Of a stretch of DNA of 64,000 nt, positions 21,305 to 26,376 are shown piece after piece. Made by a program: the position numbers and the translations under genes. The notes below the pieces were generated by a model, which worked only from the letters and a program-made list of their open reading frames with translations, was not told where the DNA came from and ran no database searches. Every line of letters starts with the position of its first letter. Positions within the stretch are counted from its first letter, which is position 1. This stretch comes from an uncultured Alphaproteobacteria bacterium. GTDB lineage: Bacteria > Pseudomonadota > Alphaproteobacteria > Sphingomonadales > Sphingomonadaceae. The stretch is taken from positions 3,212,525 through 3,276,524 of the forward strand of contig OY969615.1 in NCBI GenBank assembly GCA_963701615.1. Reading direction: 5' to 3'.

Positions 21305-21499
21305 ATGACGACGCAAGGATGGATGTGGGCCGCCGCCGGCGCGGCGCTGGCGCTGGCGGTGCTGGCCGGCGTCGCGGACCGGCGGCGGTCGCGCCGCCGC
21401 GCGCTCGACGCGCCCGGCTGGGTCCCCTGGCGCGGCATCCAGGTCGCCGCCTTCTTCGCGGTGCTGCTGTTCGCGGTGCTGGCGCTCAAGGCGGCATGA
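21305..21499 (+). CDS. small two-TM membrane protein, copy 1 (GWVPWRGIQV motif)
   Basis: MTTQGWMWAAAGAALALAVLAGVADRRR...; GGAG upstream. Confidence 0.75.
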   Translation: MTTQGWMWAAAGAALALAVLAGVADRRRSRRRALDAPGWVPWRGIQVAAFFAVLLFAVLALKAA

Positions 21500-21792
21500 A
21501 TCAGACCGGCTTTCGGTTTTTCGAACCGGTCGAGGAAGCATGCGCAAGTATCAGTCCAGAACATGCTTGACATAGCATCGCTCCAACAGAATCGTGTTTC
21601 AGTCCTGACTCAGAGGCGATTTCGTATTGAGCCGCAGAAAAGAAAGCCGTATTATTCTTGTCCGACATTCTGCTTCACGTAACTTGGCGAACCCGTCTGC
21701 TGGGCGCGAGCTGGAGAGGGGCGTCGCGACAGTCGCAGGCAGGAAGAGGCTGTGCTTCAGTGGATGAGTCGGCGGGAGAGAGAGGACCAGTC

Positions 21793-22044
21793 ATGGACGA
21801 TGAGGGGATGGATGCAAGAGCCAGGGAATCGGCGGCGCCGAGCCGCGCGGCGAGCGTCAGCCTGGCTGATTTCAGCGAAGCGATTTCAAGTGGCATACTT
21901 CGCGCCCTCGACGCGCGCGAACGGGAGGGCGGCCCGGCCACGCCTCGCCACTGGGTCCTGTTCGGCGGCTGGATCGGCGACGGCATGATCGCTCCGCCGG
22001 GTCCGCCCGGCACCCCGCCCGGTGGGCAGCAGAAGTCCGGTTAG
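21793..22044 (+). CDS. 83-aa peptide resembling a RiPP precursor (helical leader SLADFSEAISSGILRAL, core-like WVLFGGWIG)
   Basis: Strong RBS GGAGAGAGAGGA; stop 3 nt before the Cys-rich gene. The functional label is inference. Confidence 0.6.
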   Translation: MDDEGMDARARESAAPSRAASVSLADFSEAISSGILRALDAREREGGPATPRHWVLFGGWIGDGMIAPPGPPGTPPGGQQKSG

Positions 22045-22047
22045 GCA

Positions 22048-22524
22048 ATGCGCGGGCGCCGGCGGCGCGGGATCTCTGCAGCACCGTTAGCCGGCGAAGG
22101 ATGGAGCGCGGGTCCGCTCTGTCCAAGCGCGCCCACGCGCGGGGACGACCACGTCGTCTTCGGCGTGGTGCTCGGCGCGGACGAGGGCCCCCGTGTGGCC
22201 TATCTGACCGAGCCGGTGGCGGCAGCGCGGGAGCTGTTGGATCGGACGGCGCCGGCTTCGCCCCACGAGGTGCTGCGGGTTGCCGCACCTTGTGCCGAGG
22301 GCCGGTGTCGTCATTTCGATGGCAGTTCGTGCACGCTTGTCGGCCGGCTCGTCGACATGCTTCCGGTGGTCGTGGAGCGGCCGCCGCCATGCAGCATCAG
22401 ACCGAGCTGCCGCTGGTGGAAGCAGGAAGGCCGCGCCGCCTGCCTCCGCTGCCCGCAGGTGGTGACGGAGAGCTTCGCCGCCTCCACCGCTTTCCAGCGC
22501 GCCGCCGAACCACCCGCGCTCTGA
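22048..22524 (+). CDS. Cys-rich hypothetical protein (8 Cys), probable metal/Fe-S binding
   Basis: LCPSAP...APCAEGRCRHFDGSSC...PPCSIRPSCRWW.QEGRAACLRCPQVVT. Confidence 0.75.
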   Translation: MRGRRRRGISAAPLAGEGWSAGPLCPSAPTRGDDHVVFGVVLGADEGPRVAYLTEPVAAARELLDRTAPASPHEVLRVAAPCAEGRCRHFDGSSCTLVGRLVDMLPVVVERPPPCSIRPSCRWWKQEGRAACLRCPQVVTESFAASTAFQRAAEPPAL

Positions 22525-22541
22525 GGGGTCCGAACGGCGTC

Positions 22542-22727
22542 GTGACAGGATGGCTGGAGGCTGCGGGCGGCGCCGCGCTGGCGCTGGCGGTGCTGGCCGG
22601 CGTCGCGGACCGGCGCCGGTCGCGGCGGCGCGCGCTCGACGCGCCCGGCTGGGTGCCCTGGCGCGGCATCCAGGTCGCCGCCTTCTTCGCGGTGCTGCTG
22701 TTCGCGGTGCTGGCGCTCAAGACCTAG
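22542..22727 (+). CDS. small two-TM membrane protein, copy 2
   Basis: 22569-22721 repeats 21338-21490 with 5 synonymous differences by hand count. Confidence 0.65.
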   Translation: MTGWLEAAGGAALALAVLAGVADRRRSRRRALDAPGWVPWRGIQVAAFFAVLLFAVLALKT

Positions 22728-22752
22728 GGCGCACCGGCAGGCTACCGGCAGG

Positions 22753-23022
22753 CTAACGCTGCGGGCGGACCGCCTGGCCGGTGTTCTGGCCCTCGGTGAT
22801 CTGGGCCGAGATCGGCAGCCCGCTCTTCGCCTGATCCTCTTCCCGCCACTGCTCCGCGGTGCGGCAGCGCCGCGGCGTGCGGATATGGCTTCCCAGGCTC
22901 TTCGTCGCGCCCCGGCATATCGGGCGATCGTTCCGGGATTGGGCGGGCGGGTCGGCGGCGAGGGCGCCGACAGCCGACAAGGTCGCCGTGAGGGCGATCA
23001 GGATGACGGATTTGCCGGCCAT
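22753..23022 (-). CDS. small secreted protein (signal peptide; ICR...GS.I...R.C.T..QW motif)
   Basis: MAGKSVILIALTATLSAVGALA|ADPP...; GGAGGGAAG RBS. Confidence 0.75.
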   Translation of the reverse strand: MAGKSVILIALTATLSAVGALAADPPAQSRNDRPICRGATKSLGSHIRTPRRCRTAEQWREEDQAKSGLPISAQITEGQNTGQAVRPQR

Positions 23023-23095
23023 GCTTCCCTCCGCAAATTCTGGCGCAAAGGTGGGGCTCCTCCGCTGGGGAGTCAACTATCGGCGAGGACGGCGA

Positions 23096-23891
23096 TCAGA
23101 GGCAGGCCTCGAGAGAGGGCTGGTCGAAGCCGAACATCTTCGCCTTTTCCAGGGTATAGGGCCGAAGGCCCATGGAGCGATATTCGCCGATGATCTTGCC
23201 GTCGGGGGTCTCGTCCAGATATTCGAATTTGAACAATTCCTGGGTGACGATGACGTCGCCTTCCATGCCGATCACCTCGGTGATGTTGGTGCAGCGGCGC
23301 GAGCCGTCGCGGAGGCGCTTGACCTGGACGATGAGGTCGACCGAATCGGCGATCTGGCGCGAGATCGCCTCCTTGGGCACCTTGATATCCGACATCATCA
23401 CCATGTTCTCCATACGCGCCAGGCATTCGCGCGGGGAGTTGGAGTGCAGCGTCGCCATCGAGCCGTCATGGCCGGTGTTCATCGCGGCGAGCAGGTCGAA
23501 ACATTCCGCGCCGCGAATCTCGCCGAGGATGATGCGGTCGGGGCGCATGCGCAGCGCGTTGACGACGAGGTCGCGGATCGAGATCGCGCCCTGGCCCTCG
23601 AGGTTGGGCGGGCGGGTTTCGAGCGGCAGCCAGTGCGGCTGCTGCAGCCTCAATTCGGCCGCGTCCTCGATGGTGAGCACGCGCTCGCCCGGGTCGATCA
23701 GCTTGGAAAGGGCGTTGAGCATGGTCGTCTTGCCCGAGCCGGTGCCGCCCGAGATGATGATGTTCATCCGCGACGCACCGGCGATCTTGAGCACGGTCGC
23801 CATCTTCTCGGAGAGCGAGCCCCAGCCGCGCATCATGTCGACGGTGATCGGCTTTTCGGAGAATTTGCGGATCGAGATGGCGGTGCCGCGC
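23096..23891 (-). pseudogene. cpaF: duplicated 3' half of cpaF (no 5' end)
   Basis: Matches 24758-25553 at offset 1662; differences seen at the stop codon, at 23115 and near 23770. Confidence 0.9.
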
Positions 23892-24043
23892 CGGCGCTGG
23901 TGCTCGTCGCCGGGCTTGCCGAATCGCGCCGCAACCGCCGACGCAGCCTCAACTCGGCGGGGTGGGTGCCGTGGCGAGGGCTTCAGGTGGCGGGATTCTT
24001 CGGCCTGCTGGCGTTCACGATGATCGCGGTGAAGGCGCACTGA
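23892..24043 (+). pseudogene. 5'-truncated divergent allele of the small membrane gene (copy 3)
   Basis: Reads LVLVAGLAESRRNRRRSLNSAGWVPWRGLQVAGFFGLLAFTMIAVKAH*; a further fragment AGWMPWRGLQV at 24054-24085. Confidence 0.75.
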
Positions 24044-24128
24044 GCATCGCGTCGCCGGCTGGATGCCGTGGCGCGGGCTTCAGGTTTTCGAAGGTGATGA
24101 CGCCGCAACGGTGCGATCGTTCCGAAGG

Positions 24129-24572
24129 TCAGTAGGCTCCACCTCGGGGCGGCCTGCAGCCGCCGGGAAAATCGGGAAACTCGATACAGCGCACCCGATG
24201 GTTCGACACCCGGAAGATAACCGGGCCTGACCAATACCTCTCCGTATTGCGCGAATAATAACGGTATGTTCCACGAACTTCATAATAGCCCGAGCACACG
24301 TTTCCGTTTGTTACTATCAGTCCGACTAATGAATTTTGAACGTAAATATAGGCATCAACCCAATATTGGGCGTCGTTTTCAAGGACGGCTATAAAGTAAT
24401 TATTGCTTTGCGCCTGGCAATTTTGCATATTGGCAAAAATAATATTGCTGTTCTGATTATAAACAGCAGCAGATGAACGAATGTGCGTGTCGGGAGTGGG
24501 GATGCCTGCATAAATCACAGCTAGGGCAGGCAATATGCTGACACCGCTTGTCATAGTCATCAACTCCCCCAT
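24129..24572 (-). CDS. low-GC orphan protein (Tyr/Asn-rich, beta-rich, possible signal peptide)
   Basis: 147-aa ORF in a visibly AT-rich patch; GGGGGAG RBS-like sequence near the start. Confidence 0.6.
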   Translation of the reverse strand: MGELMTMTSGVSILPALAVIYAGIPTPDTHIRSSAAVYNQNSNIIFANMQNCQAQSNNYFIAVLENDAQYWVDAYIYVQNSLVGLIVTNGNVCSGYYEVRGTYRYYSRNTERYWSGPVIFRVSNHRVRCIEFPDFPGGCRPPRGGAY

Positions 24573-24757
24573 CCGGCTTATTGGGTTGATGCTGCCAAGC
24601 TGAAGCGCTGGCTGCCGACTCGGATTATTCTGAATTTAGATGAGGGGGCGTGTCGTCGCAACCATCTACGCAACATAGTGACCGATCGAGCGGGCCAACC
24701 ATGCGGTTGCCCGCGTCATCGCGGCTCTGACAGGTGCTTGGGCGCCGTCCGGACGGG

Positions 24758-26284
24758 CTAGAGGCAGGCCTCGAGATAGGGCTGGTCGAAGCCGAACATC
24801 TTCGCCTTTTCCAGGGTATAGGGCCGAAGGCCCATGGAGCGATATTCGCCGATGATCTTGCCGTCGGGGGTCTCGTCCAGATATTCGAATTTGAACAATT
24901 CCTGGGTGACGATGACGTCGCCTTCCATGCCGATCACCTCGGTGATGTTGGTGCAGCGGCGCGAGCCGTCGCGGAGGCGCTTGACCTGGACGATGAGGTC
25001 GACCGAATCGGCGATCTGGCGCGAGATCGCCTCCTTGGGCACCTTGATATCCGACATCATCACCATGTTCTCCATACGCGCCAGGCATTCGCGCGGGGAG
25101 TTGGAGTGCAGCGTCGCCATCGAGCCGTCATGGCCGGTGTTCATCGCGGCGAGCAGGTCGAAACATTCCGCGCCGCGAATCTCGCCGAGGATGATGCGGT
25201 CGGGGCGCATGCGCAGCGCGTTGACGACGAGGTCGCGGATCGAGATCGCGCCCTGGCCCTCGAGGTTGGGCGGGCGGGTTTCGAGCGGCAGCCAGTGCGG
25301 CTGCTGCAGCCTCAATTCGGCCGCGTCCTCGATGGTGAGCACGCGCTCGCCCGGGTCGATCAGCTTGGAAAGGGCGTTGAGCATGGTCGTCTTGCCCGAG
25401 CCGGTGCCGCCCGAGATGATGATGTTCATCCGGCTGGCGCCGGCGATCTTGAGCACGGTCGCCATCTTCTCGGAGAGCGAGCCCCAGCCGCGCATCATGT
25501 CGACGGTGATCGGCTTTTCGGAGAATTTGCGGATCGAGATGGCGGTGCCGCGCAGGGAGAGCGGCGGGATGATGACGTTGACGCGGCTGCCGTCGGGCAG
25601 GCGGGCGTCGGCCAGAGGCGTGGTCTGGTCGACGCGGCGGCCGACCTTGTTGACGATCCGCTGGGCGATCTGGAGCAGATGCTCCTCGTCGCGGAACTGG
25701 ATCTGGGCGATCTCGAGCTTGCCCTTCTTCTCGATGTAGGTCTGGTTGGGGCCGTTGACCATGATGTCGCTGACGTCGGGGTCGCCGAGCAATTCCTCGA
25801 GCGGGCCGAGGCCGAGCAGCTCGTCGACCAGCACCTTCTCGAGCGCGAACTGCTCGCGGCGGTTCAAGTTGATCTTCAGCTCGGCGAGCACCTCGCCGAT
25901 GATCGGACGGAACTCCTCGGCGAGCTCGTCCTTGGAAAGCGTCGCGGCGGCCTCGGGATCGACCCGCTCGAGCAGGCGCGGCAGCACCTGCTCCTTGATG
26001 CGATGGATCGAGGCCTCGAAACCCTCATTCTTCGACGAGCTTTGCTCGCCCGACTGCGCCTGACGGTCGGCGAGCCGCGCCATCGCGTCGCCGCGATCGA
26101 TCATTCCGCTGGATTCGATGCCGCCCTCGTCGACCCCGAGCGCGTCGGGCTCGATCGGCGGGAACTGGCTGCCGCCTTCGTTGGGGGCGACTGGCCCGGG
26201 CCCCTTCATCGGCTTGGCGACGCCGAAGCTGGGGCGGCCGCCGCCGGTTCCGTTCGCGCCGTTGCGTCGTCCAAATGCACTCAT
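24758..26284 (-). CDS. cpaF: Tad/Flp pilus assembly ATPase
   Basis: SGGTGSGKTT Walker A, TIEDAAEL, LRMRPDRIILGEIRG, MNTGHDGSMATLH; MSAFGRR start. Confidence 0.95.
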   Translation of the reverse strand: MSAFGRRNGANGTGGGRPSFGVAKPMKGPGPVAPNEGGSQFPPIEPDALGVDEGGIESSGMIDRGDAMARLADRQAQSGEQSSSKNEGFEASIHRIKEQVLPRLLERVDPEAAATLSKDELAEEFRPIIGEVLAELKINLNRREQFALEKVLVDELLGLGPLEELLGDPDVSDIMVNGPNQTYIEKKGKLEIAQIQFRDEEHLLQIAQRIVNKVGRRVDQTTPLADARLPDGSRVNVIIPPLSLRGTAISIRKFSEKPITVDMMRGWGSLSEKMATVLKIAGASRMNIIISGGTGSGKTTMLNALSKLIDPGERVLTIEDAAELRLQQPHWLPLETRPPNLEGQGAISIRDLVVNALRMRPDRIILGEIRGAECFDLLAAMNTGHDGSMATLHSNSPRECLARMENMVMMSDIKVPKEAISRQIADSVDLIVQVKRLRDGSRRCTNITEVIGMEGDVIVTQELFKFEYLDETPDGKIIGEYRSMGLRPYTLEKAKMFGFDQPYLEACL

Positions 26285-26376
26285 GACTTCGCGGACCTCG
26301 CCTGTCGTCTCAATGTGAATTCCCCGTCGAAGTGGTGAATAAGCGGGAAACTTTGACAATTGCCTAACCCCGGACG

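Follow-up and report, generated by a model that had tools for sequence, protein, structure and literature searches.

A small precursor-like peptide and its eight-cysteine partner protein: a candidate peptide-maturation module at a variable site of a Sphingomonadaceae genome

Introduction

The question raised by the locus described here is whether two small adjoining genes, one encoding a peptide of 83 amino acids and the other a protein with eight cysteines (hereafter the Cys protein), constitute a peptide-modifying pair. Both lie in a stretch of 64,000 nucleotides (nt) of contig OY969615.1 (assembly GCA_963701615.1, positions 3,212,525 to 3,276,524 of the forward strand), from an uncultured alphaproteobacterium of the family Sphingomonadaceae; this whole stretch is referred to as the window, and all coordinates are counted from its first letter. 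Sequence comparison across several phyla indicates that the two genes are coupled in function and form a self-contained module, passed from lineage to lineage, and makes the module a candidate peptide-maturation variant built on a protein family and a fold that are described in no database. The explanation we favor, at slightly less than an even chance, is a minimal pair resembling the systems that produce peptides made by the ribosome and modified after translation (RiPPs), in which a metal-binding Cys protein would recognize a helix of the peptide and act on its Gly-centered motif.

The gene pair

The features of the pair are listed below, followed by the region that precedes it.

21793-22044, plus strand: precursor-like peptide gene, 83 amino acids, stop codon TAG (list of open reading frames, ORFs; homologues on metagenome contigs L068 and L069)
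22048-22524, plus strand: gene of the Cys protein, 158 amino acids (ORF, family alignment, predicted fold)
21838-21921, plus strand: conserved N-terminal helix motif of the peptide (PSRAASVSLADFSEAISSGILRALDARE), the proposed recognition element (leave-own-clade-out hidden Markov model, HMM; fusion model)
21949-21978, plus strand: hydrophobic Gly-centered core motif HWVLFGGWIG (recurs in partner peptides; aligns with fusion proteins)
21500-21792, plus strand: lower-GC leader with promoter-like sites and a Shine-Dalgarno-like run, GGAGAGAGAGGA, before the ATG (GC content, promoter scan)

The initial annotation of this DNA, made from the sequence alone, had described an 83-residue peptide and an eight-cysteine neighbor separated by 3 nt and preceded by an AT-richer leader with a TTGACA, and all of these are present as described. 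The translated peptide ORF, for which an alternative ATG is possible at 21808, contains SLADFSEAISSGILRAL, the segment WVLFGGWIG and a Pro/Gly tail. The Cys ORF begins 3 nt past the TAG of the peptide and in the same reading frame, and its product has exactly eight cysteines, namely C25 (in LCPSAP), C82-x4-C87-x7-C95, C115-x5-C121 and C132-x2-C135. The leader, about 290 nt long, has a GC content of 0.49 (measured over 21500-21699) as against 0.70-0.78 in the flanks on either side. Its TTGACA is found at 21567-21572, whereas a consensus promoter scan chose TTGAGC-17-TATTAT at 21627-21655 instead (one site, with 0.2 expected). No DNA similarity was found between the leader and the upstream regions of the closest cassettes, those on L068 and L069.

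The family of the Cys protein

The Cys protein belongs to a large and strongly conserved family that is new to Pfam and NCBIfam. A word-indexed search recovered 360 relatives, with identities of 45-74% among the 120 listed, and when 1.84 billion cluster representatives were searched with a profile, 1,230 clusters (at 50% identity) were returned with E ≤ 1e-3, and 929 with E ≤ 1e-10. Among the best 150 of these 1,230 clusters the length varies from 117 to 259 amino acids, the conserved part being about 135 residues, and conservation between phyla amounts to 45-55% identity. In an alignment of 50 sequences, seven cysteines are invariant, as are R77, R118, W123, Q126 and G128, while C25, H89-F-D-G92, R122 and E127 are kept in at least 90%. 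The protein is predicted to be cytoplasmic, with R77, H89-F-D-G92, R118, R122-W123 and Q126-E127 as its conserved polar residues, and its eight cysteines probably form two metal sites, either zinc or Fe-S.

Carriers of the family include cyanobacteria, Acidobacteriota, Gemmatimonadota, Verrucomicrobiota, Acetobacteraceae, Nitrosomonas, Comamonadaceae, Paraburkholderia, Ralstonia, plasmids of Agrobacterium vitis and of Streptomyces, and Spirosoma. In the genus of the window itself, only two of the 25 genomes carry the Cys gene, which is therefore an accessory gene. A weak match in one further genome (G032, E 5e-4) was discarded as spurious, because its frame overlaps other long ORFs in GC-rich DNA.

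Nothing in Pfam, NCBIfam, PADLOC or PHROGs matched the Cys protein. For 50 members of the family no credible Pfam match was obtained, no known Fe-S or zinc-finger family was matched, and a profile search with the family found no relative among the sequences of the PDB. The AlphaFold2 model of the protein, a confident one (predicted local distance difference test, pLDDT, 83.7; predicted template modeling score, pTM, 0.76), consists of a three-stranded sheet and short helices; a Foldseek comparison of this model with the PDB gave no match, the best E being 2.4, and no PqqD-like fold was found. A literature search found no paper on the family. Two cyanobacterial members, P0084 (MBD3886017.1) and P0060 (HEY9608887.1), are labeled ‘nitrogen fixation protein’ in GenBank, a label that could not be traced to any NCBIfam or Pfam model or to a paper.

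The peptide family: a conserved helix and a variable core

When the 83-residue peptide was used as query in a word-indexed homology search, only the peptide itself was recovered. Its relatives were gathered by their position upstream of Cys homologues and confirmed by an HMM from which the peptide’s own clade was left out. With an HMM built from the peptides of other phyla, the window peptide ranked first among 732 six-frame ORFs of the window, with an E of 0.0048 as compared to 1.7 for the next; the match covers the helix motif only, in which about 28 amino acids are conserved. The N-terminal motif common to the partner peptides reads ..S-I/V-S-h-x-D/E-F/L-x6-A-V/I-x-R-A-L-x-A-R, and is followed by a variable stretch and then by one or two short hydrophobic motifs centered on glycine, such as VLFGGW, IIAGGI, ILCGII, IVIGII, MILGFQ and ILCGFY. 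Of 31 partner peptides, 25 have such a motif, whereas shuffled sequences gave a mean of 2.1, the pattern having been written after the data were viewed. In the window, HWVLFGGWIG aligns with YEFGGW of natural fusion proteins, which are described below.

The two metagenome contigs with the closest Cys homologues, L068 and L069, have clear homologues of the peptide upstream of these. The peptides retain the N-terminal half, while the C-terminal half has diverged save for W-I-W-A-G-W-[WI]-I-G. The comparison of codons with L068 follows the same division: among the N-terminal 44 codons, 21 are identical, 7 differ synonymously and 16 non-synonymously, whereas 33 of the last 39 differ non-synonymously. 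A layout of conserved leader and variable core was thus found by HMM, codon comparison and alignment. In the Trichodesmium peptide (L042) the core carries a tandem duplication of PIILGFRPWPP, while in its sister genome, L043, there are two motifs that have diverged; this resembles the repeated cores of multi-core precursors.

Evidence for coupling of the two genes

A small ORF with an ATG start, on the same strand and directly upstream of the Cys gene, was found in 27 of 29 loci, which cover nine phyla or classes and include Cyanobacteriota, Acidobacteriota, Gemmatimonadota, Verrucomicrobiota, Alpha- and Betaproteobacteria, Actinomycetota and metagenome contigs. The initial annotation had made its interpretation depend on such co-located homologues of the peptide and on a Cys family not already characterized as something else; ORFs that are homologous or at least analogous to the peptide are present, and the Cys family is indeed uncharacterized. 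Its description of the two genes as an ‘orphan’ cassette has to be abandoned, as both have many relatives elsewhere. When the type of the peptide was mapped on the tree of the Cys proteins, only 6 label changes were needed as against a mean of 15.7 in shuffled labels, and none of 200 shuffles matched or improved on this number, while the Alphaproteobacteria were scattered over at least four separate places. The tree thus groups by peptide type and not by taxonomy, so that the pair would appear to travel and evolve as a unit.

Neighborhoods, export and the bacteriocin alternative

The surroundings of the pair were examined in 23 loci with 201 neighboring ORFs. No third gene was common across them, the commonest families being present in only two to four loci, and a radical S-adenosylmethionine (radical-SAM) enzyme was not consistently linked to the pair. 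The initial annotation had also associated similar Cys-rich proteins of other bacteria with dehydrogenases of the SagB type; this link was not borne out, since no nitroreductase or SagB family was shared by two or more of the neighboring ORFs when the best 25 families per scan were considered, and YcaO was likewise absent from the families so shared. A radical-SAM gene is near the pair in two cyanobacterial loci; in L050, small ORFs lie between the pair and a radical-SAM gene. The neighbor census also contained Nif11 matches, which were not assigned to particular loci.

In several lineages the peptide itself and its surroundings point to export. A double-glycine leader was defined by a GG (or GA/GS) cleavage site, by hydrophobic side chains in positions -4, -7 and -12, and by an acidic one close to -8. 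Between helix and core, a motif of the type ELSxEExxxVxGG is seen in the peptides of cyanobacteria, Nitrosomonas, Pseudorhodoferax and two Acetobacteraceae, and double-Gly motifs of the type ELSEEQTAEVVGG were assigned by eye in the peptides of relatives; in addition, two peptides gave weak, sub-threshold matches to lanthipeptide-leader models (E 0.015). The Nitrosomonas locus has the order peptide, Cys gene, HlyD and an ATP-binding cassette (ABC) transporter with a C39 peptidase domain. A C39-ABC gene also lies downstream of the pair in Pseudorhodoferax and in one Acetobacteraceae locus. By locus number, C39-ABC genes adjoin the pair in L057 (together with HlyD), L054 and L066, with one more in the batch L060-L067, and an HlyD gene was found at L044. 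Since in Nitrosomonas, Comamonadaceae and Acetobacteraceae a double-glycine-type leader coincides with a neighboring C39-ABC exporter (accompanied by HlyD in the first of these), the peptide is probably an exported product in these lineages, made in or beside natural-product clusters. In L044, L047 and L050 (Okeania, Tolypothrix and Roholtiella), genes for an APH-type kinase and a HopA1-type protein stand beside the pair in three different arrangements; these two make up the dehydration pair of class V lanthipeptide systems, which suggests that in these three loci the pair belongs to, or is recruited by, lanthipeptide-like clusters. In the source genome of the window, there is no C39-ABC gene near the pair, and its two C39 ORFs are both more than 1.8 Mb away. 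As neither a cleavage motif nor a linked exporter is found in this genome, the product may here stay in the cell.

The gene order in the exporting lineages brings in an alternative, that of a bacteriocin or other toxic peptide with its immunity protein or antitoxin, in which the Cys protein would shield the producer. The succession of peptide, small gene, HlyD (where present) and C39-ABC in L057, L065 and L066 matches class II bacteriocin and microcin operons, and the sizes of the two products (83 and 158 amino acids), their 3-nt spacing, the patchy distribution and the location in a variable hot spot all agree with it. Against this, the second protein, predicted to be cytoplasmic, is highly conserved from phylum to phylum, in contrast to the hypervariable cores of the peptides; immunity proteins normally co-vary with their cognate bacteriocin. 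An unmodified bacteriocin would have no use for the extra conserved helix in front of the double-Gly leader, the hydrophobic stretch does not reach the length of a membrane helix, and a fusion of the peptide with its partner, as occurs in nature, would make no sense for an exported toxin. Moreover, no match was found in PADLOC or among the toxin-antitoxin families of Pfam, and the conserved region of about 28 amino acids is too short for a ribbon-helix-helix domain, such that the features of a type II toxin-antitoxin pair, namely an antitoxin with a DNA-binding domain (RHH, HTH or AbrB) and a toxin of known family, are also missing. We thus regard a bacteriocin with its protector as improbable.

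Fusions of the two proteins and the two-subunit alternative

In some cyanobacteria the two products are parts of a single polypeptide, in which ..QRAIAVRKKA..SSGYEFGGWKSLL.. is followed by a linker of about 40 residues, long and of low complexity, and then by LCPS... In 13 of 27 loci, moreover, the Cys ORF shares the frame of the peptide ORF, with only stop codons between them, where chance would give one third; together with the natural fusions, this raised the idea of an occasional read-through of the stop codon. A read-through fusion of the two window ORFs was modeled across the TAG with paired rows, from an alignment of in-frame read-through fusions and natural fusions, and the helix (residues 24-44) was obtained with block-mean pLDDT values of 82-89. 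A mixed alignment that included peptide-only rows was dropped, as those rows were misaligned onto the Cys domain.

These fusions are central to the main rival of the reading that we favor, namely a stable metalloprotein of two subunits, or of a single fused chain, with a role inside the cell, for instance in regulation or in the sensing of metals or redox state. Its small component would then be a permanent subunit, with the helix packed on the Cys domain, and there would be neither modification nor export in most lineages. Natural fusions with a long low-complexity linker speak for such a protein, as does a helix that is confidently modeled in the fusion; the strong conservation of the family across phyla and the lack of a linked exporter, protease or second enzyme in most loci are also in keeping with it. 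On the other hand, the GG-type leaders and adjacent C39-ABC genes in at least three lineages point to cleavage and export there, the very fast evolution of the C-terminal part and its duplicated motifs would be unusual for a structural subunit, and the core motif is undocked in the fusion model. On balance, we consider a two-subunit metalloprotein rather unlikely, while treating it as the most serious competitor.

A proposed maturation mechanism

In the favored reading of the pair as a minimal maturation system, the first gene encodes a small precursor-like protein whose N-terminus has a conserved helix of amphipathic character (..S-[IV]-S-h-x-[DE]-[FL]..A[VI]xRALxAR) and whose fast-evolving C-terminal part bears one or two hydrophobic Gly-centered motifs, here VLFGGWIG. 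The Cys protein, presumably with bound metal, would first bind the helix as a leader-like recognition element, and would then either modify the Gly-centered motif or hold it for a later step. In other lineages, a double-glycine-type leader placed between helix and core would allow export beside a C39-ABC transporter, while the product of the source genome may remain internal. The part of this reading that concerns the window’s peptide in the initial annotation, a coupled pair with a leader/core peptide, has stood up, given the upstream ORFs in nearly all loci and the GG-type leaders and C39-ABC genes of several lineages; its SagB connection and its repeat-bounded cassette have not. A more specific proposal, which we consider possible but less likely than not, sees in the Cys protein the enzyme that founds a new RiPP class. 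It would be a metalloenzyme of some 135 residues, with a fold for which the PDB has no example, and it would recognize a helical leader and chemically alter the hydrophobic Gly-centered motif.

Several results weigh against the favored reading. The Cys protein has no known catalytic fold, cofactor motif, SAM or ATP site or RiPP recognition element, and falls in no recognized family of modifying enzymes as judged by Pfam and NCBIfam, by 50 family members, and by PDB profile and fold searches. In the fusion model, the Gly motif has a block-mean pLDDT of only 41-49, and the model does not predict a docked substrate. A canonical double-Gly leader is missing from the window peptide, as its ..LDAREREGG.. 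has an Arg at -4, and the double-Gly motifs of the relatives were judged by eye and are below curated cut-offs. In most loci, that of the window included, neither a protease nor an exporter nor a second enzyme is linked to the pair. A permanent two-subunit protein would account equally well for the natural fusions and the 13 same-frame loci, and the order of peptide, small gene, ABC transporter and HlyD is also the classical layout of a bacteriocin and its immunity gene.

If there were indeed a new RiPP class, it would comprise more than 1,000 sequence clusters in at least seven phyla, with some members wired to C39-ABC export and others making a cell-internal product or a self-modified fusion protein. 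Should the Cys protein be a maturase, the ribosomal natural products would gain both a new family of very small enzymes and a new class of peptides, and the family could be mined, having more than 1,000 members in cyanobacteria, soil Acidobacteriota, nitrifiers and plant-associated bacteria. As a mere binding partner, too, the Cys protein would represent a large conserved family with an obligatory small partner and with natural fusions, and thus a well-posed target for structural and functional study.

Comparison with known systems

Precursors of the NHLP and Nif11 types have extended leaders and double-glycine sites, and are exported by C39-peptidase ABC transporters. The peptides described here resemble them in their small size, in the conserved, structured N-terminal region that precedes a GG-type motif in many relatives of the window peptide, in a variable and sometimes repeated core, and in the C39-ABC and HlyD genes that adjoin the pair in several lineages. 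They differ in that their candidate maturase is unlike any known RiPP enzyme or recognition element, and that the window copy has neither a GG motif nor a linked exporter; any modification here would be a putative one.

Operons of class II bacteriocins and microcins, such as that of microcin V, comprise a structural gene, an immunity gene, an ABC exporter and an accessory protein, and the Nitrosomonas-type order of peptide, small gene, HlyD-type protein and C39-ABC is similar to this. In contrast to these operons, however, the second gene of the pair encodes a soluble eight-cysteine protein with 45-55% identity across phyla, the peptide has an additional helix that is conserved, and some cyanobacteria have a fusion of the two genes.

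The borosin-type OphMA is a RiPP system in which precursor and enzyme are fused. Here, too, the peptide and its partner are one polypeptide in some cyanobacteria, and the cores are rich in hydrophobic residues and glycine; in the fusions of our pair, however, the peptide is N-terminal, and the partner is no methyltransferase and has no known catalytic fold. Lastly, PqqA/PqqD/PqqE and MftA/MftB/MftC are pathways of peptide-derived cofactors, which the pair resembles in having a small peptide with a dedicated partner and a Gly-aromatic motif and in a possible cell-internal product for which an exporter would be unneeded, but from which it differs in lacking both a consistently linked radical-SAM enzyme and a PqqD-like fold.

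Flanking repeats and the variable chromosomal site

The pair lies between two direct repeats, which belong to a series of related segments as follows (TM, transmembrane).

21305-21499, plus strand: 2-TM gene copy 1, 64 amino acids, motif GWVPWRGIQV (ORF; holds the first repeat, 21316-21490)
22542-22727, plus strand: 2-TM gene copy 2, GTG start at 22542, 61 amino acids (holds the second repeat, 22547-22721)
23860-24043, plus strand: 2-TM gene copy 3, N-terminally truncated and diverged (repeat match 23860-24034, 63%; ORF translation)
24054-24085, plus strand: fourth 2-TM gene fragment, 32 nt (repeat family)
23087-23894, minus strand: second copy of the 3' portion of cpaF, about 808 nt, abutting 2-TM copy 3 (nearly identical to 24751-25556)

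The initial annotation had seen 153-bp direct repeats bracketing the two genes. The repeats are real; their length, however, is 175 nt (21316-21490 and 22547-22721), with 11 mismatches and 94% identity, and the 153-nt stretch is their nearly perfect core. The notion of a cassette bracketed by them did not survive, because each repeat is a complete copy of a 2-TM gene, the two being paralogues at a site that is variable throughout the genus, and the four mismatches in the middle of the copy 1/copy 2 alignment are all synonymous; the repeats are thus not the ends of a cassette. The 2-TM gene, which has no Pfam or NCBIfam family, is specific to the genus, usually single-copy, and adjoins a methyltransferase gene in 21 of 24 same-genus genomes, its usual position being between this gene and cpaF, the ATPase gene of the Tad pilus. 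In the relatives G010 and G008 the methyltransferase gene is followed by the 2-TM gene, and this by cpaF without anything in between, whereas G019 and G015 have other cargo before cpaF. Contig L069 has the order methyltransferase, 2-TM gene, peptide, Cys gene, so that its cassette is at the same site as that of the window; on L068, the cassette instead stands beside a small lipoprotein-like gene.

It might still be argued that the 175-nt repeats are the recombination sites of a cassette system, either integron-like or the attachment sites of an unknown recombinase, with the genes as mere cargo. Three to four copies of one gene segment do alternate with unrelated cargo over 21305-24085, and the same cassette occurs at two different points of the hot spot in the related contigs L068 and L069. 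Nevertheless, there is no integrase, transposase or recombinase ORF in or beside the unit and there are no terminal inverted repeats. The 3.48-Mb genome has no other close copy of the repeat, all other matches being of 30-90 nt at 72-91% identity. With the repeats being complete genes that differ synonymously in their center and that are single-copy in most relatives, a transposon, an insertion sequence or an integron cassette was rejected, and the nearly identical 808-nt duplication of cpaF points, for this locus as a whole, to homologous or illegitimate recombination. A dedicated cassette system is accordingly a poor candidate. Most likely, the second 2-TM copy arrived together with the peptide/Cys cassette, through recombination with DNA of a relative that carried the cassette at the same site; repeated recombination at the hot spot, in which the incoming DNA brings its own copy of the anchor gene, is the simplest account. 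The locus would thus illustrate how a small host gene is duplicated repeatedly as cargo accumulates at one chromosomal hot spot.

Three further features of the hot spot were recorded. The upstream cpaF duplicate is a truncated gene fused antisense to 2-TM copy 3, the full cpaF being at 24758-26359. A small lipoprotein-like gene (22753-23022, minus strand, about 89 amino acids) encodes a signal-like N-terminus and a conserved pair of cysteines; its counterparts adjoin cpaF in G019 and G015, and the peptide/Cys cassette in L068. Between the 2-TM fragments and cpaF, an AT-rich island (GC 0.40-0.47) contains an ORF of 147 amino acids (24129-24572, minus strand), which has no Pfam or PADLOC match and a marginal PHROG match to a tail fibre (E 0.099), and which is probably foreign cargo.

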